From a virus (Duplodnaviria; Heunggongvirae; Uroviricota; Caudoviricetes), in IMG/VR virus record IMGVR_UViG_2695420596_000001, positions 1 to 13,605 of that record: a stretch of DNA of 13,605 nucleotides; one strand, given 5' to 3'. The notes under the pieces are model-generated. The model was not told the origin of the DNA. It saw nothing but the letters and a program-made list of their open reading frames with translations, and searched no databases. Shown here one piece after another: positions 3,364 through 12,126 of the stretch; positions within the stretch are counted from its first letter, which is position 1, and every line of letters begins with the position of its first letter. The translations under genes were made by a program, and so were the position numbers.

Positions 3364-3678
3364 ATGCTACATGATCACGTGGCAGAATGTCTGGAGAAAA
3401 AAGGACTGTACCGGAGAGCAGCTGAACGATGGGCAAAAGTGATGGTACAGCTAAGTGATGACCAGAAAAGAAAAGTGGCGGCACAGAAACGAGCAGAGTG
3501 TTTGCGTAAGGCGCGCCGGACTCCGGTTTCACCGGTGAACCTGACCGAAATAAAACAAGCGGTCAACAGACTACATTCTGAGTTGGGAATGGGATTTGAA
3601 GAGCGGCGGGTATTCCGACGATATAAAGGGACAGGAGAACAGAATACGTCCGGAAACGCGCGGTCAAAAAAATGCTAA
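3364..3678 (+). CDS. PerC-family-like small transcriptional regulator (104 aa), prophage cargo gene
   Basis: N-terminus MLHDHVAECLEKKGLYRRAAERWAKVMVQ matches the pattern I associate with the PerC/Pch family (AE.LE..G..RRAA.RW..V). Good SD (GGAGG, 6 nt spacer). Family call is from memory of the motif, not a search. Confidence 0.45.
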   Translation: MLHDHVAECLEKKGLYRRAAERWAKVMVQLSDDQKRKVAAQKRAECLRKARRTPVSPVNLTEIKQAVNRLHSELGMGFEERRVFRRYKGTGEQNTSGNARSKKC

Positions 3679-3759: not shown

Positions 3760-3984
3760 TTAAGTAAACCTGTCTGAACAGGTGCTCTGGTCGTGTTTGT
3801 CTTTGTTGGGTACAAATTGAGCATGTTTTTCATTAATTAATCTTCTTCTGCAGGCTTCAATAACCCACGCTGAAAAATTACCTGAACCTTTCTGATCAAG
3901 AGCGATGTTAATTTGTTCAATCATTTGGTTAGGAAAGCGGATGTTGCGGGTTGTTTTTCTGCGGGTTCTGTTCTTCGTTGACAT
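3760..3984 (-). CDS. Ribbon-helix-helix (Arc/Mnt/CopG-type) DNA-binding protein, 74 aa
   Basis: MSTKNRTRRKTTRNIRFPNQMIEQINIALDQKGSGNFSAWVIEACRRRL...: an Arg-rich N-terminal arm, then a beta-strand/helix/helix pattern (IRFP..E.I..A...G.S.NFS..V.EA) typical of Arc/Mnt-like repressors. Confidence 0.6.
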   Translation of the reverse strand: MSTKNRTRRKTTRNIRFPNQMIEQINIALDQKGSGNFSAWVIEACRRRLINEKHAQFVPNKDKHDQSTCSDRFT

Positions 3985-4153
3985 GAGGTTGCCCCGTATT
4001 CAGTGTCGCTGATTTGTATTGTCTGAAGTTGTTTTTACGTTAAGTTGATGCAGATCAATTAATACGATACCTGCGTCATAATTAATTATTTGACGTGGTT
4101 TGATGGCGTAGATGCACGTTGTGACATGTAGATGATAATTATTATCATTTTGC

Positions 4154-4180
4154 GGGTCCTTTCCGGCGATCCGACAGGTT
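4154..4180 (+). other. cosQ-like element (terminase nicking/termination accessory site)
   Basis: GGGTCCTTTCCGGCGATCCGACAGGTT immediately upstream of cosN is essentially the sequence I recall preceding the lambda right cohesive end. Confidence 0.55.
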
Positions 4181-4183
4181 ACG

Positions 4184-4195
4184 GGGCGGCGACCT
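4184..4195 (+). other. cosN: 12 nt cohesive-end sequence GGGCGGCGACCT
   Basis: Exact match to the canonical lambda cohesive end, and the following ~45 nt (CGCGGGTTTTCGCTATTTATGAAAATTTTCCGG) match the lambda left end as recalled. It sits about 185 bp upstream of the terminase small subunit gene. Confidence 0.85.
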
Positions 4196-4217
4196 CGCGG
4201 GTTTTCGCTATTTATGA

Positions 4218-4335
4218 AAATTTTCCGGGATCCATGTCCGGTTTCTCTTCAAGTTAACTATATGAAAAATATAAAAACAGGTCTTCTGTGAACCGGACAT
4301 GAACAAAAAACAGACATGTAAACCGGACATGACCG
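4218..4335 (+). repeat. cosB-like terminase small-subunit binding region: three copies of AACCGGACATG (one inverted, two direct) around an A/T-rich block
   Basis: Inverted copy at about 4220-4233 (CCATGTCCGGTTTC), direct copies at 4291-4302 and 4321-4332, with an A/T-rich segment (4240-4288) between the first and second. This R3-I1-R2-R1 architecture is classic for lambdoid cosB, but the repeat sequence is not the lambda one. Confidence 0.5.
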
Positions 4336-4378
4336 GTTTTGTTGTGATTGTGAGGTGAGAGTTTTTGCGAGGTGAGGA

Positions 4379-4888
4379 GTGGCTACGCAGACTGAAGTTG
4401 CCAGGCATTTAAGTCTGACCGATCGCCAGCTTCGCAGATTGCAGAAATTGCCGGGTGCCCCGATATCGAATAAGCGAGGGCAACTGGATCTGGATGCCTG
4501 GCGCGATTTTTACATATCGTATCTGAGGAGAAGTAAAAACGATGTGCCTGATGGCGATAGCGAAGACGACTATGAGGAGAAATTGCTTATTGCCAGATGG
4601 GAACTGACAGCAGAACAGGCTGTTACACAGCAGTTAAAAAATGAGGTGTCAAAAGGAAAACTTATTGACACCGGGTTCTGTATTTTTGCCCTCAGTAAGC
4701 TGGCAATGGCGTTATCCAGTACGCTTGATTCCATCCCTTTATCCATGCAGCGACAGTTTCCTGATTTAACACCGCGCCATCTTGACCATCTGAAAACCCT
4801 TATTGCTAAGGGGGCAAATCAGTGTGCGCGGGCAGGGGATAAATTACCGGATTTACTCGATGAATATATCAGAGCAACAACTGAATAA
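4379..4888 (+). CDS. nu1: Terminase small subunit (Nu1-like), 169 aa
   Basis: GTG start with AGGTGA SD. N-terminal HTH-like segment and C-terminal region (TGFCIFALSKLAMALSSTLDSIPLSMQRQFPDLTPRHLDHL...LPDLLDEYI) are collinear with lambda Nu1 as recalled. Overlaps the large subunit gene. Confidence 0.85.
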   Translation: MATQTEVARHLSLTDRQLRRLQKLPGAPISNKRGQLDLDAWRDFYISYLRRSKNDVPDGDSEDDYEEKLLIARWELTAEQAVTQQLKNEVSKGKLIDTGFCIFALSKLAMALSSTLDSIPLSMQRQFPDLTPRHLDHLKTLIAKGANQCARAGDKLPDLLDEYIRATTE

Positions 4889-6788
4889 TATGATGGCTGC
4901 CGTTTCGGTTGCGCTGCAGCCTCTGGTCAGGGTTGTACCAATGACGGCAGTTGAATGGGCTGATCAAAATTATTATCTGCCTAAAGAATCTTCATATGGT
5001 GAGGGAGAATGGAAAACGCTGCCATTCCAGATCGCCATTATGAACTGTATGGGTAACGACCAGGTTCGCACGGTTAACCTGATTAAATCTGCCCGTGTTG
5101 GCTATACAAAGATGTTGCTGGGGGTGGTCGGGTATTTTATTGAGCATAAATCCCGAAACAGTCTGCTTTTTCAGCCCACGGATTCTGCCGCTGAAGATTT
5201 TATGAAGTCTCACGTGGAGGCGACGATTCGGAACGTGCCATGCCTGAAAGACCTTTCCCCATGGCTGGGTCGTAAACATCGTGACAATACTCTCACGCTG
5301 AAACGCTTTTCATCGGGCGTCGGTTTCTGGTGCCTGGGCGGTGCAGCCGCCAAAAACTACCGTGAAAAATCCGTGGACGTGGTCTGCTATGACGAGCTTT
5401 CCTCGTTCGAGCCGGATGTCGAAAAAGAGGGCTCGCCAACCCTGCTGGGGGATAAGCGTATTGAGGGCTCTGTATGGCCAAAATCCATTCGCGGCTCGAC
5501 GCCTAAAATCAAAGGTACCTGCCAGATCGAAAAAGCGGCCAACGAGTCGGCGCATTTCATGCGTTTCTATGTGCCCTGCCCGCACTGTGGGGAGGCGCAG
5601 TATCTGAAATTTGGCGATGAATCCACGCCTTTTGGCCTTAAATGGGAGAAGGACAGCCCCGAAAGCGTTTTCTACCTCTGTGAACATCATGGCTGCGTGA
5701 TCCATCAGTCTGAGCTTGACCAGAGTAACGGGCGCTGGATCTGTGAAAACACGGGTATGTGGACCCGTGACGGCCTGATGTTTTTCAGCGCCCGGGGGGA
5801 TGAAATTCCGCCGCCGCGCTCCATCACGTTCCATATCTGGACGGCGTACAGTCCGTTCACCACCTGGATACAGATAGTCTATGACTGGCTGGATGCACTG
5901 AAAGATCCCAACGGCCTGAAAACCTTTGTGAACACCACGCTGGGCGAGACCTGGGAAGAGGCCGTGGGCGAAAAACTCGATCACCAGGTACTGATGGATA
6001 AGGTGGTGCGTTACACGGCGGCGGTGCCTGCCCGGGTGGTTTATCTGACGGCGGGCATTGACTCGCAGCGAAACCGTTTTGAGATGTATGTCTGGGGATG
6101 GGCACAGGGAGAGGAAGCCTTTCTGGTGGATAAAATCATCATTATGGGCCGTCCCGATGAGGAAGAGACGCTGTTACGTGTGGATGCGGCGATCAACAAA
6201 AAATACTGCCATGCAGACGGAACCGAAATGACCATTTCCCGTGTCTGCTGGGACACCGGGGGGATCGATGGTGAAATTGTCTATCAGAGGTCAAAAAAAC
6301 ACGGTGTTTTCCGGGTGCTGCCGGTAAAAGGCGCATCTGTCTATGGCAAGCCGGTGATCACCATGCCGAAAACCCGCAATCAGCGGGGCGTGTATCTGTG
6401 TGAAGTGGGGACGGACACCGCAAAAGAAATTCTCTATGCCCGTATGAAAGCCGATCCCACTCCTGCGGATGAAGCCACGTCGTATGCCATCCGTTTTCCT
6501 GATGATCCGGAGATTTTTTCGCAGACAGAGGCGCAGCAACTGGTCGCGGAAGAGCTTGTGGAGAAGTGGGAAAAAGGAAAGATGCGTCTGCTGTGGGATA
6601 ACAAAAAGCGGCGTAACGAAGCGCTGGACTGCCTGGTGTATGCCTACGCGGCATTACGTGTGTCCGTGCAACGCTGGCAGCTTGATCTGGCTGTACTGGC
6701 AAAATCCCGGGAAGAAGAGACGACCCGGCCAACCCTGAAAGAACTGGCAGCGAAGCTGTCCGGAGGAGTGAATGGTTACAGTCGCTGA
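4860..6788 (+). CDS. A: Terminase large subunit (gpA-like), about 642 aa from ATG 4860
   Basis: Strong collinearity with lambda gpA (AVEWADQNYYLPKES..., KSARVGYTKMLL..., GSVWPKSIRGSTPK..., TAYSPFTTW..., WDNKKRRNEALDC...). The ORF-track start at 4803 is an upstream in-frame alternative; MNISEQQ at 4860 matches the lambda A N-terminus MNISNSQ. Confidence 0.93.
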   Translation: MNISEQQLNNMMAAVSVALQPLVRVVPMTAVEWADQNYYLPKESSYGEGEWKTLPFQIAIMNCMGNDQVRTVNLIKSARVGYTKMLLGVVGYFIEHKSRNSLLFQPTDSAAEDFMKSHVEATIRNVPCLKDLSPWLGRKHRDNTLTLKRFSSGVGFWCLGGAAAKNYREKSVDVVCYDELSSFEPDVEKEGSPTLLGDKRIEGSVWPKSIRGSTPKIKGTCQIEKAANESAHFMRFYVPCPHCGEAQYLKFGDESTPFGLKWEKDSPESVFYLCEHHGCVIHQSELDQSNGRWICENTGMWTRDGLMFFSARGDEIPPPRSITFHIWTAYSPFTTWIQIVYDWLDALKDPNGLKTFVNTTLGETWEEAVGEKLDHQVLMDKVVRYTAAVPARVVYLTAGIDSQRNRFEMYVWGWAQGEEAFLVDKIIIMGRPDEEETLLRVDAAINKKYCHADGTEMTISRVCWDTGGIDGEIVYQRSKKHGVFRVLPVKGASVYGKPVITMPKTRNQRGVYLCEVGTDTAKEILYARMKADPTPADEATSYAIRFPDDPEIFSQTEAQQLVAEELVEKWEKGKMRLLWDNKKRRNEALDCLVYAYAALRVSVQRWQLDLAVLAKSREEETTRPTLKELAAKLSGGVNGYSR

Positions 6789-6978
6789 ACTACAGGCGCT
6801 ACGTCAGGCGCGCCTTGATTTATTAACCGGTAAACGGGTGGTGTCTGTCCAGAAAGATGGTCGCAGAATTGAATATACGGCGGCTTCTCTGGATGAGCTT
6901 AACCGGGCGATCAATGATGCGGAGTCGGTACTGGGGACAACCCGACGTCGCCGTCGTCCGCTGGGAGTGAGGTTATGA
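6772..6978 (+). CDS. W: Head-stabilisation / head-tail joining protein W-like, 68 aa
   Basis: LTGKRVVSVQKDGRRIEYTAASL...RRRRRP parallels lambda gpW ([23 protein letters not shown]...QRRRGP); same length; overlaps the terminase stop and the portal start (ATGA). Confidence 0.85.
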   Translation: MVTVAELQALRQARLDLLTGKRVVSVQKDGRRIEYTAASLDELNRAINDAESVLGTTRRRRRPLGVRL

Positions 6979-8672
6979 AACGAACGCCTGTCCTGATTGA
7001 TGTGAACGGCGTTCCGCTTCGTGAGAGTCTCAGCTACAACGGGGGCGGCGCAGGATTTGGCGGGCAAATGGCGGAGTGGTTGCCACCGGCGCAGAGTGCC
7101 GATGCAGCCCTGCTGCCTGCGTTGCGTCTGGGGAATGCCCGGGCAGATGATCTGGTGCGCAATAACGGGATAGCGGCCAATGCGGTGGCCCTGCATAAGG
7201 ATCATATTGTCGGGCATATGTTTCTGATCAGCTACCGTCCGAACTGGCGCTGGCTGGGGATGCGGGAGACTGCGGCAAAAAGTTTTGTCGATGAGGTGGA
7301 GGCGGCCTGGTCGGAATACGCCGAAGGGATGTCTGGCGAGATCGACGTGGAAGAGAAACGCACGTTTACGGAATTTATTCGTGAAGGTGTGGGCGTTCAT
7401 GCGTTTAACGGCGAAATCTTTGTGCAGCCGGTCTGGGATACGGAGAGCACGCAACTGTTTCGTACGCGTTTTAAAGCCGTGAGTCCGAAACGGGTGGACA
7501 CGCCAGGACACGGTATGGGGAACCGTTTTCTGCGGGCCGGGGTGGAGGTCGATCGATATGGCCGTGCCGTTGCGTACCATATCTGTGAGGATGATTTTCC
7601 GTTCTCTGGTAGTGGACGATGGGAACGGATCCCGCGTGAACTACCCACCGGGCGTCCGGCCATGCTGCATATTTTCGAGCCGGTGGAGGACGGGCAGACC
7701 CGTGGGGCTAATCAGTTTTACAGCGTCATGGAACGGCTGAAGATGCTGGATTCCCTGCAGGCAACACAGCTTCAGTCGGCCATTGTGAAAGCCATGTATG
7801 CAGCGACGATTGAAAGTGAACTTGATACCGAAAAGGCCTTTGAATATATCGCCGGTGCGCCGCAGGGGCAGAAGGATAATCCGCTTATTAATATTCTGGA
7901 TAAGTTCTCCACCTGGTATGACACGAATAACGTGACGCTGGGCGGTGTCAAAATTCCGCACCTTTTCCCCGGTGATGATCTGAAACTGCAGACTGCGCAG
8001 GATTCAGACAATGGATTTTCGGCGCTTGAACAGGCGCTGCTGCGGTATATCGCCGCCGGTCTTGGCGTTTCCTACGAACAGTTGTCCCGGGATTACTCGA
8101 AGGTCAGTTATTCAAGTGCCCGCGCCTCCGCCAATGAGTCGTGGCGCTATTTTATGGGACGACGAAAATTTATTGCGTCCCGGCTGGCCACGCAGATGTT
8201 TTCCTGCTGGCTGGAAGAGGCACTTCTTCGGGGGATTATTCGTCCGCCACGGGCGCGTTTTGATTTTTATCAGGCGCGATCAGCCTGGTCACGGGCTGAG
8301 TGGATTGGAGCCGGAAGAATGGCCATTGACGGGCTCAAGGAAGTCCAGGAATCAGTGATGCGCATTGAGGCCGGACTGAGCACGTATGAGAAAGAGCTGG
8401 CGCTGATGGGCGAGGATTATCAGGACATTTTCCGCCAGCAGGTCAGGGAATCTGCTGAGCGACAAAAAGCCGGACTCTCACGTCCGGTGTGGATAGCGCA
8501 GGCGTATGAGCAGCAGATAGCGGAGAGTCGCAGGCCGGTACCGGGGTTTCTCTTTAGCATGGCAGAAATGTGTTTCATGCTTTTCGGGCGAAGGATATCC
8601 GACTTCTGTACGGAATGGCAAGTGGCGGTTAATTTATTCAGGGGAAGGCTGTATGGGAAAAGGTGGCGGTAA
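6975..8672 (+). CDS. B: Portal protein (gpB-like), 565 aa, with a non-homologous C-terminal ~45 aa extension
   Basis: Collinear with lambda gpB across most of its length ([11 protein letters not shown]..., [13 protein letters not shown]..., [17 protein letters not shown]..., [13 protein letters not shown]..., STYEKE...). From roughly residue 520 the sequence (...[45 protein letters not shown]) has no counterpart in lambda B and runs into the J start. Confidence 0.85.
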
Positions 8673-11600
8673 GGCACACACGCCTCGTGAGGCGAAGGAT
8701 AATCTCAAATCCACGCAGATGATGAGTGTGATTGATGCGATTGGTGAGGGACCGATAGAAGGTCCGGTGAAGGGACTGCAGAGTATTCTGGTGAACAAAA
8801 CCCCACTGACGGACACGGACGGCAATCCCGTGATACACGGTGTGACGGCGGTCTGGCGCGCCGGGGAGCAGGAGCAGACACCACCGGAAGGCTTTGAGTC
8901 CTCCGGAGCTGAAACCGGACTGGGCGTGGAAGTGACGAAGGCAAAACCGGTGACGCGCACCATTACGTCCGCGAACATTGACCGCCTGCGGGTTACCTTC
9001 GGGGTGCAGTCACTGGTGCAGACCACGTCAAAGGGCGACCGTAATCCTTCCTCTGTCCGGATTCTGATTCAGTTACAGCGTAATGGCCGCTGGGTGACGG
9101 AAAAGGACGTCACCATTAACGGCAAGACCACCTCACAGTTCCTGGCCTCGGTGATTCTGGATAATCTGCCTCCCCGGCCCTTTAACATCCGGATGGTCAG
9201 GGAGACGGCGGACAGCACCACGGACCAGCTGCAGAATAAGACGCTGTGGTCGTCATACACCGAAATCATCGATGTGAAACAGTGCTACCCGAACACGGCC
9301 ATTGTGGGGCTGCAGGTGGATGCGGAGCAGTTCGGCGGCCAGCAGATGACGGTGAACTACCATATCCGCGGTCGCATCATCCAGGTACCGTCAAACTATG
9401 ACCCGGAAAAACGCACGTACAGCGGCATCTGGGACGGCAGCCTGAAACCGGCATACAGCAACAACCCGGCCTGGTGCCTGTGGGACATGCTGACTCACCC
9501 GCGCTACGGCATGGGAAAACGTCTGGTGGCGGCGGATGTTGACAAGTGGGCGCTGTATGCCATCGGGCAGTACTGCGACCAGACGGTCCCGGATGGTTTC
9601 GGGGGCACAGAGCCGCGGATGACCTTTAATGCGTACCTGTCACAACAGCGTAAGGCGTGGGACGTTCTCAGTGATTTCTGCTCGGCGATGCGCTGTATGC
9701 CGGTATGGAACGGCCAGACGCTGACGTTCGTTCAGGACCGCCCGTCGGATGTGGTGTGGCCGTACACCAACTGCGATGTGGTGGTGGATGATAACGGCGT
9801 GGGGTTTCGCTACAGCTTCAGCGCCCTGAAGGACCGCCACACGGCGGTGGAGGTGAATTACACCGACCCGCAGAACGGCTGGCAGACCTCCACGGAACTG
9901 GTGGAAGACCCGGAAGCCATACTGCGCTACGGGCGCAACCTGCTGAAGATGGATGCGTTCGGCTGCACCAGTCGCGGTCAGGCCCACCGTGCCGGGCTGT
10001 GGGTGATAAAGACCGGACTGCTGGAAACGCAGACGGTGGATTTCACGCTCGGGTCACAGGGGCTGCGTCACACACCCGGTGACATTATTGAAATCTGTGA
10101 TAACGACTATGCCGGGACCATGACCGGCGGACGTGTCCTGTCCATCGATGCCGCCAGCCGCACCCTGACGCTGGACCGTGAGGTGACACTGCCGGAGACC
10201 GGTGCCGCCACGGTGAACCTGATTAACGGCAGCGGTAAGCCGGTGAGTGTGGACATCACCGCACACCCCGCGCCGGACCGGATACAGGTCAGCACCCTGC
10301 CTGATGGTGTGGAGACATACGGTGTATGGGGACTCTCCCTGCCGTCACTGCGCCGTCGCCTGTTCCGCTGTGTCTCCGTCCGGGAAAACACGGACGGCAC
10401 CTTTGCCATCACGGCGGTGCAGCACGTACCGGAAAAAGAAGCCATCGTGGATAACGGTGCCCGCTTTGAGCCGCAGTCAGGCACCCTGAACAGCGTCATC
10501 CCTCCGGCAGTGCAGCACCTGACGGTGGAGGTGAGCGCAGCTGACGGCCAGTATCTGGCGCAGGTGAAATGGGACACGCCGCGGGTGGTGAAGGGCGTGC
10601 GCTTCAGTCTGCGCCTGACCAGTGGTAAGGGAACGGATGCCAGACTGGTGACCACCGCCATCACTGCGGATACAGAGCATCGTTTCAGTGGTCTGCCGCT
10701 CGGGGAATACACCCTGACAGTCAGGGCAATTAACAGTTATGGCCAGCAGGGGGAACCGGCCACCACCACGTTCAGGATTAATGCACCTGCGGTACCCGCC
10801 ACGATTGAGCTGACACCGGGCTATTTTCAGATAACAGCGGTCCCGCGTCTTGCCGTTTATGACCCGACGGTACAGTTTGAGTTCTGGTTCTCGGAAAAGC
10901 GGATTGCGGATATCAGGCAGGTTGAAACCGCAGCCCGCTATCTTGGCTCGGCGCTGTACTGGATAGCTGCCAGTATCAATATCAAACCGGGCCATGATTA
11001 TTATTTTTATATCCGCAGTGTGAATACTGTTGGCAAATCGGCATTCGTGGAGGCTGTCGGTCGGGCGAGCGATGATGCGGAAGGTTACCTGGATTTTTTC
11101 AAAGGAGAAATCGGGAAAACACATCTGGCCCAGGAGCTGTGGACGCAGATTGATAACGGTCAGCTTGCGCCGGACCTGGCTGAAATCAGGACGTCCATTA
11201 CGAATGTCAGCAATGAAATCACGCAGACCGTCAATAAAAAACTGGAAAATCAGAGTGCGGCAATCCAGCAGATACAGAAAGTTCAGGTTGATACAAATAA
11301 TAACCTGAACAGCATGTGGGCCGTGAAACTGCAGCAGATGCAGGACGGACGCCTTTATATTGCGGGTATCGGTGCCGGTATTGAGAATACGCCAGCAGGA
11401 ATGCAGAGTCAGGTGCTGCTGGCGGCAGACAGGATTGCGATGATTAATCCTGCGAATGGCAACACAAAGCCGATGTTTGTTGGTCAGGGCGATCAGATAT
11501 TTATGAATGAAGTGTTCCTGAAATATCTGACGGCTCCCACCATTACCAGCGGCGGTAATCCTCCGGCATTTTCCCTGACACCGGACGGGCGGCTGACGGC

Positions 11601-12126
11601 GAAAAATGCCGATATCAGCGGTAACGTGAATGCGAACTCCGGGACGCTCAACAACGTCACGATTAACGAGAACTGTCGGGTTCTGGGAAAATTGTCCGCG
11701 AACCAGATTGAAGGCGATCTCGTTAAAACAGTGGGCAAAGCTTTCCCCCGGGATTCCCGTGCACCGGAGCGGTGGCCATCAGGAACCATTACCGTCAGGG
11801 TTTATGACGATCAGCCGTTTGACCGGCAGATTGTTATTCCGGCGGTGGCATTCAGCGGCGCTAAACATGAGAAAGAGCATACTGATATTTACTCCTCATG
11901 CCGTCTGATAGTGCGGAAAAACGGTGCTGAAATTTATAACCGTACCGCGCTGGATAATACGCTGATTTACAGTGGTGTTATTGATATGCCTGCCGGTCAC
12001 GGTCACATGACACTGGAGTTTTCGGTGTCAGCATGGCTGGTAAATAACTGGTATCCCACAGCAAGTATCAGCGATTTGCTGGTTGTGGTGATGAAGAAAG
12101 CCACTGCAGGCATCACGATTAGCTGA
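8653..12126 (+). CDS. J: Tail tip / host-specificity protein J, 1157 aa
   Basis: Collinear with lambda gpJ from the N-terminus ([22 protein letters not shown]...) through the FN3-like region and conserved block ([40 protein letters not shown]). It diverges in a central segment and in the C-terminal receptor-binding region. Confidence 0.95.

Follow-up and report, generated by a model that had tools for sequence, protein, structure and literature searches.

A lambda-like cos site with a probably separate packaging specificity in a defective Escherichia coli prophage

The region 4100–4420 of the window, the 13,605-nt stretch of viral DNA analyzed here (13.6 kb), reads as the cos site (cosQ-cosN-cosB) of a lambda-like Escherichia coli prophage. 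Judging from its sequence, this is very probably a lambda-type cos in which the small terminase subunit TerS binds R repeats, and it would form a packaging-specificity class of its own, here called type A. The class is regarded as separate because its pair of recognition helix (DRQLRRLQ) and site (ATGTCCGGTT) is unlike the pairs of lambda, 21, phi80, Gifsy-1, and N15. The elements of the site and the adjacent terminase genes are listed below, with +1 as the first base of the cohesive end.

4153–4164, plus strand: cosQ (the "R4" box), CGGGTCCTTTCC, the same as the R4 box annotated in phage 21 (M81255) and as lambda
4184–4195, plus strand: cosN cohesive end, GGGCGGCGACCT, identical to lambda, 21, and phi80; +1 is 4184
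4196–4228, plus strand: spacer (+13 to +45) with the I2-like TATGAAAATTTT block in it; the lambda-like stretch goes no further than 4228
4233–4243, plus strand: R3-equivalent, CATGTCCGGTT, +50 to +60, at the position of the lambda and 21 R3 (+50 to +65; PMC9026076)
4255–4267, minus strand: candidate I1-equivalent with the IHF-like core TAACTATATGAAA, at +72 within the A/T-rich stretch 4244–4290, two mismatches to YAANNNNTTGATW
4291–4301, minus strand: R2-equivalent, AACCGGACATG on the plus strand, +108 to +118, inverted with respect to R3; in phage 21, R2 spans +107 to +122
4321–4331, minus strand: R1-equivalent, AACCGGACATG, +138 to +148, in the R2 orientation
4328–4338, plus strand: overlapping fourth copy, CATGaCCGGTT, one mismatch, at +145, in the R3 orientation
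4379–4888, plus strand: terS, 169 aa, GTG start; residues 49–150 are Pfam Phage_Nu1 (PF07471)
4860–6788, plus strand: terL (gpA family), 66% identical to lambda gpA

The left part of the site follows lambda closely. The GGGTCC of cosQ starts 30 nt ahead of +1, and GGGTCC(T)TTCC is retained across all type-A relatives, the Azospirillum and MAG loci included. Counted from +1, the prefix common to the window and lambda is exactly 45 nt (the 12-nt end and 33 nt more), and the I2 annotation of M81255 lies at the place equivalent to the TATGAAAATTTT block. Over the 60 nt on the left side of cosN, 55 positions agree with lambda and 36 with phage 21. Beyond +45, a blastn search with word size 7 found only words of up to 9 nt shared with the cosB of lambda or 21, those shared with 21 being no longer than 8 nt. 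In the phage collection, window 3900–4228 is 97–99% identical to lambda-type phages, with the Megablast match ending at 4228, and window 4133–4895 is 96.5% identical to PhiR12_1 to PhiR12_5; no single record of that collection spans both matches. The conservation of cosQ and cosN would be explained by a TerL so similar to gpA, and the break in similarity at +45 by the exchangeability of the TerS domain together with cosB. Type A is a further case of DNA-binding module exchange at a conserved cosN junction.

Exact copies of the 11-mer AACCGGACATG are present three times in the 13.6-kb window and nowhere else in it (4233–4243 on the minus strand, 4291–4301 and 4321–4331 on the plus strand), 4291–4301 being the reverse complement of 4233–4243. 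The shorter core CATGWCCGG occurs five times, four of them inside 106 bp, where 0.30 would be expected, and none of 200 shuffles reached five; the repeats are therefore real and not a product of chance. Much of what the initial annotation had described in this region agrees with these results: the cosQ and cosN of lambda type match lambda in CGGGTCCTTTCC and GGGCGGCGACCT, the three repeats do lie in an inverted-direct-direct pattern around an A/T-rich block, as their exact coordinates and strands confirm, and the positions of R3 and R2 fit the proposed R3-I1-R2-R1 layout with different R elements, with the exact R1 oriented differently from lambda. The match to lambda of about 45 nt after the cohesive end was correct in its length, which has to be counted from +1, so that only 33 nt lie past the end.

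According to Murialdo and Feiss, the cosBs of lambda, phi80, 21, and Gifsy-1 follow the order R3-I1-R2-R1, and their R2 runs in the direction opposite to the other two R elements (PMC9026076). R3 occupies bp 50–65, and its distance from cosN is critical (PMC9026076). The exact copy at 4321–4331 has the R2 orientation, unlike the R1 of these four phages, which is oriented as R3, and the only R3-oriented copy near it is the overlapping one-mismatch copy at 4328–4338. Together with R1, this fourth copy makes up the palindrome AACCGGACATGACCGGTT at 4321–4338. The lambda model may therefore not transfer in detail.

Within the type, variation was followed in 41 distinct E. coli cosB variants, the first scan of viral contigs having yielded 80 loci that were all 99% identical. 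R3 is invariant in all 41, with variable flanks and spacers around it, while the exact R2 core is kept in 38 and the exact R1 core in 28, the usual alternative for the latter being AAGCCGGACATG. The fourth copy is seen in most E. coli variants and is absent from Klebsiella and Enterobacter kobei. A degenerate fifth copy (AAACAGACATG, 4308–4318) was dropped as an R element, since it is not conserved in PhiR12_1. One IMG/VR contig (L092) has R2 and R1, equivalent to 4291–4338, fused via a 30-bp deletion between the repeats; published work has proposed unequal crossover of this kind as the way in which simple cosBs arose.

The spacer between R3 and R2 (+61 to +108, 4244–4291) is 73% A+T. A scan of the window for the IHF consensus with at most one mismatch returned nothing in this spacer, and the core listed above has the same number of mismatches to YAANNNNTTGATW as lambda TAACTTAATGTTT at +74, namely two; the box annotated as I1 in phage 21, at +72 to +86, has one. 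Of the 11 type-A loci scanned, 10 have an IHF-like core at +71 to +73, and E. kobei has none there. This core is free of mismatches in Klebsiella, E. coli P0013 and L113, and Salmonella P0022, has one in four other loci, and two in the window and PhiR12_1. The locus P0014, read apart from these 11, has a perfect core as well. The IHF-type site of the window is thus a candidate, suggested by its position and by its relatives.

Next to cos, the window encodes a TerS with a predicted N-terminal winged-helix domain and a C-terminal Nu1 domain, followed by a gpA-type TerL. The start of terS is at +196, compared with +191 in lambda and +189 in 21. Residues 1–58 of the protein are predicted to form a winged-helix DNA-binding domain, with residues 15–22 (DRQLRRLQ) as the predicted recognition helix. 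In tblastn, the first ~60 residues of TerS have no match in lambda, 21, phi80, N15, or Gifsy-1, and the matches to 21, lambda, phi80, and N15 begin only at residues 57–73. A weak profile-profile alignment sets the helix-turn-helix of the TerS N-terminus in register with that of Nu1. Searches of PDB sequences with TerS and with the N-terminal profile gave no meaningful match, NCBIfam has no model, and Foldseek with the full-length TerS model gave no match at E <= 0.001.

When 1.84 billion proteins were searched, the profile of the type-A domain matched 514 cluster representatives, in almost every case at the N-terminus of a protein of 150–200 residues. Three much longer proteins (P0112, P0119, and P0173; 604, 2911, and 4162 aa) are matched in 7–11 stretches each, which may be repeat or low-complexity artefacts. 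In the alignment of homologues, one type of C-terminal domain is joined to three N-terminal types, namely type A, N15-type, and lambda/21-type. In alignment A3 and in loci L007, L010, and L123, cosB is seen to change along with the type of the TerS DNA-binding domain. This modularity, together with the way in which cosB tracks it, points to recombination within terS as well as at +45.

Among known systems, lambda shares with the window the tripartite plan, a cosQ, cosN, and +1 to +45 that are identical or nearly so, and a TerS C-terminal domain of about 46% identity. Neither the lambda R boxes, CGTTTCC(G/T)TTCT, nor the Nu1 helix RTIQNWQE are present in the window, however, and lambda R1 is oriented as R3. 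The nohD and nohA genes of the K-12 cryptic prophages DLP12 and Qin (some annotations of relatives read "Qin Nu1-like") were considered as type A and rejected, being of plain lambda type.

Phage 21 is similar in layout. It has the same cosQ and cosN with four differences in +1 to +45, R3 near +50, an IHF-type core near +72, an R2 that is likewise inverted near +107, and a terS start near +190, besides a Nu1-family TerS C-terminal domain, a gpA-family TerL, and the half-motif CATGTC..GG in its R boxes. Its annotation in M81255 runs from R4/cosQ, cosN, and I2 to R3 (+50 to +65), I1 (+72 to +86), R2 (+107 to +122, inverted), and R1 (+150 to +165). The repeats of the window could accordingly be read as diverged 21 R boxes recognized by 21 gp1, given that their R3 and R2 coordinates are almost those of phage 21, that CATGTC..GG is common to them and to 21 R1 and R2 (TTTCATGTCGG), and that the lysis module carries a P21-type holin. 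This reading is highly improbable. The match to 21 requires a 1-nt insertion (CATGTC-GG versus CATGTCCGG), and the 3' halves are unlike, ACCTT in the window versus TTTCT or TTCAC in 21. The R core is (T)CATGTCGGNCCTT in 21 and CATGTCCGGTT in the window, and of the 21 R boxes, TTTCATGTCGGNCCTT, the repeats share only CATGTC..GG. BLASTP does not align the TerS DNA-binding domain with 21 gp1, whose recognition helix is RTIERWQS instead of DRQLRRLQ. Furthermore, the DNA left of cosQ is lambda/DLP12-like and not 21-like. Lambda and 21 differ from each other far less than the window differs from 21, yet they exclude each other by about 1000-fold or more (PMC4669245, Table 6). A specificity either 21-like or of a further variant had been proposed for this site, together with an alignment against the 21 cos and gp1; the comparison does not support a 21-like specificity, and the further variant is the option that fits.

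Upstream DNA of type-A terS genes was compared across Klebsiella, an E. coli lineage of 77% identity, three lineages of Salmonella, Citrobacter, E. kobei, and contigs of IMG/VR, as well as in two sequenced phages and a number of distant genomes; a scan of genome contigs turned up only 12 loci, few of which were of use at intermediate distance. Among the enterobacteria, the comparison covers 12 distinct type-A loci. In all of these, PhiR12_1 and P0014 included, whose TerS proteins are 60–99% identical, R3 lies at +50 to +52. An inverted R2 is likewise common to all 12, and the eleven in which its position was measured have it at +107 to +109; every one contains cosQ, a G-rich 12-mer, and the TATGAAAATTTT block, with variable spacers and cohesive-end sequence. 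A lambda-type cosQ and cosN is, on this comparison of loci, the rule for the whole type-A group and not a special combination. Lack of conservation of the repeats among phages sharing this type of Nu1 had been named beforehand as the result that would speak against them, and the 12 enterobacterial loci and the 41 E. coli variants show the opposite. A third copy in the R2 orientation is found in E. kobei (+137) and Klebsiella (+151). The Salmonella relatives have two copies only, R3 and one inverted copy, so R1 may be dispensable.

Residue 20 of TerS co-varies with the repeat: arginine goes with ATGTCCGG, and aspartate or asparagine with A[T/C]TTCCGG, the T-for-G counterpart of ATGTCCGG being ATTTCCGG. 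Thus, the helix ..RQLRRLQK is found with (C/G)ATGTCCGGTT in the window, PhiR12, S. diarizonae, Citrobacter, and E. kobei, and the helix ..R[DN]LQK with CA[T/C]TTCCGGTT in Klebsiella, E. coli P0013/L113, and Salmonella P0022, P0027, and P0033. Every copy of every locus was checked, and no exception was found. For P0014, with the helix RN, the T was predicted before the sequence was read, and the copies proved to be CATTTCCGGTT and AACCGGAAATG. A neighbour-joining tree of the DNA-binding domain implies at least two switches at residue 20, this tree of a 58-residue domain being weak, and the co-variation rests on few independent switches.

At loci where a related C-terminal domain is joined to an N15-type DNA-binding domain, GGTTGTTGTTT stands at the R3 position and there is no TCCGGTT. 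Distant type-A members in Aeromonas phiARM81ld, Pseudomonas LPPA33, Azospirillum, and MAGs carry a tandem TTCCGGTTCCGGTT instead of inverted copies. The phiARM81ld record starts at the cohesive end and has the tandem at +52 to +68, and in LPPA33, Azospirillum, and the MAGs it lies shortly before terS. As read from these sequences, the tandem arrangement is a "simple" cosB like that of N15.

Inverted repeats ahead of a gene might also act in the late transcript, as RNA or terminator structures tuning terS expression, and not as protein sites. R3 and R2 do pair as a 12-bp stem, the 121-nt fold having an energy of -32.8 kcal/mol (z = -2.9), and the palindrome AAACCGGACATGACCGGTTT at 4320–4339, followed by the T-run TGTTGTG just upstream of terS, scores as an intrinsic-terminator-like hairpin. 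A fold of this kind is nevertheless expected from any inverted pair of protein sites, and R1 is oriented as R2, against an RNA element. The tandem direct copies of the distant relatives are unable to form a hairpin, and neither the fixed distance between R3 and cosN nor the co-variation with a residue of the protein helix would be expected for RNA. The terminator-like palindrome is conserved in most E. coli variants and not in other genera, being missing from Klebsiella and E. kobei. A purely RNA-level function of the repeats is therefore very unlikely; the hairpin at 4320–4339 may have an auxiliary role.

Under the preferred reading, in which the repeats are TerS sites, the CATGTCCGGTT repeats would form a tripartite cosB. 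The winged-helix domain of TerS would bind R3 at +50 and place TerL on cosN (4184–4195), where TerL would introduce the nicks. An IHF-type bend in the A/T-rich spacer would set the inverted R2 (+108) facing R3, with a TerS dimer bridging both, and R1 (+138) and its overlapping partner would add affinity. The cosQ (4153–4164) would serve termination as in lambda. Terminases of lambda or 21 would presumably not cross-react with such a site.

N15 and Monarch resemble type A in that a single type of DNA-binding domain occurs with both simple and tripartite cosBs. In type A, the simple form is that of phiARM81ld, LPPA33, and Azospirillum and the complex form that of the enterobacterial lambdoids. 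In sequence, type A is nonetheless unrelated to the N15-type domain (MAVLLNKSDMASS...) and to the R3 that goes with it (GGTTGTTGTTTAAT), and the window has neither. The Rpp proteins of PICIs (RppC, PDB 6HN7) show 16% identity with the domain of the window. Rpp is a hijacker that heterodimerizes with the TerS of its helper, whereas the domain of the window sits in a full-length TerS with a TerL-binding C-terminus, and the PICI cosB has been described as a single R3, in contrast to the tripartite cosB found here.

The window as a whole is a lambdoid prophage, with genes for a P21-type holin, lysozyme, Rz, a PerC homologue, and DUF3950/YlcI, followed by cos, terS, terL, gpW, a portal-family ORF, gpJ, and lom. 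The pinholin had been recognized from the outset as non-lambda, in keeping with its assignment to the P21 type (PF04971). The head genes after the portal and the tail genes from Z to I are all missing. The prophage is therefore defective, and its copy of cos would be usable only in trans, if a phage sharing its specificity resided in the same cell. Genes for a PerC-family transcriptional activator (3364–3678) and a DUF3950 (YlcI/YnfO) protein (3760–3984) separate the lysis genes from cos. The portal-family ORF (565 aa; Pfam portal domain at aa 29–397) runs straight into gpJ over 6975–12126, with the junction near 8539–8672. None of 5426 complete E. coli genomes has this junction; E2348/69 comes closest, at 87% and in two pieces.

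Many O157:H7 and O145 chromosomes contain window 4100–4420 at 100% identity. The segment comprising cosB and the 5' part of terS (4229–4560) is present at a coverage of at least 80% in 1164 of the 5426 complete E. coli genomes (21%), with a median of two copies per genome carrying any. The plaque-forming PhiR12 phages have the same cosB and terS, with 96.5% DNA and 99.4% protein identity; their records are complete genomes that list laboratory E. coli K-12 or C as hosts, which indicates that this type of terS and cosB belongs to viable phages. A prophage lacking most head and tail genes could be suspected of holding a dead cos, its repeats being a relic, a chance occurrence, or the sites of another regulator, with cosB function elsewhere or absent. 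The same arrangement is nevertheless found in the complete PhiR12 genomes and in more than a thousand complete E. coli genomes, the clustering of the repeats is far above chance, and their motif follows the type of the TerS DNA-binding domain across genera. Such an origin of the repeats is extremely unlikely.

Described cosBs are those of lambda, 21, phi80, Gifsy-1, N15/Monarch, and PICIs (PMC4669245, PMC9026076, PMC6739421). Searches of the literature, that on Shiga-toxin/O157 phages included, found neither a description of a type-A cosB nor a PhiR12 paper; subscription journals (e.g., Virology 2015, on N15-like cosBs) lie outside their scope, and a prior description may exist. Type-A DNA is present in thousands of public genomes, with the gene annotated merely as "terminase small subunit". 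The mechanism itself is ordinary and adds nothing past the lambda paradigm, type A being modestly new as a specificity class.

A broader proposal can be put forward tentatively, at slightly less than even confidence: type A may be an undescribed and widespread specificity family of lambda-like cos phages, in which TCCGGTT is read by the helix xRxLRxLQK. It would be carried by about one fifth of the complete E. coli genomes, those of O157:H7 having several such prophages each, and would extend to Klebsiella, Salmonella, Citrobacter, Enterobacter, an Aeromonas phage (phiARM81ld), and phages of Pseudomonas and Azospirillum. Within it, two sub-specificities that exclude each other may be determined by one residue (R20 or D/N20) and one base (G or T in front of TCCGG). 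If this holds, type-A together with lambda-, 21-, and N15-type cos sites would split the prophage pool of a cell into cross-packaging groups, defective prophages included.

Packaging specificity determines which co-resident prophages, defective prophages, and islands are mobilized by a lytic phage, and O157:H7 and other pathogenic E. coli contain several lambdoid prophages with a type-A cos. Once the R elements and the residue reading them are known, cross-packaging groups become predictable from sequence. The pair of R20 with G and D,N20 with T is besides a natural experiment on DNA recognition by TerS, analogous to the "tri1/tri2" work on lambda and 21.

A few further features of the cos region deserve mention. 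Window 3900–4228 is nearest to lambda/DLP12-type sequence. Lambda (L122) has a TCCGGTT of its own at +41 to +47, precisely where the window and lambda diverge (ttTCCGGTTtaagg versus ttTCCGGGATCC), probably by coincidence. The 12-nt cohesive end varies among type-A relatives, with examples such as GGGCGACGCGCT, GGGCGGCGTCCG, and GGGCGCTAACCC (loci L097–L109, L113, and L120), and cosQ and the block from +25 to +40 are constant there despite this variation; the positions +1 to +12 at these loci assume a lambda-like spacing from cosQ. Finally, the ribosome-binding region of terS shows a 17-bp tandem duplication at 4348–4376 (TTGTGAGGTGAG / TTGCGAGGTGAG), and some IMG/VR variants, those of the L019 class, carry a single copy.
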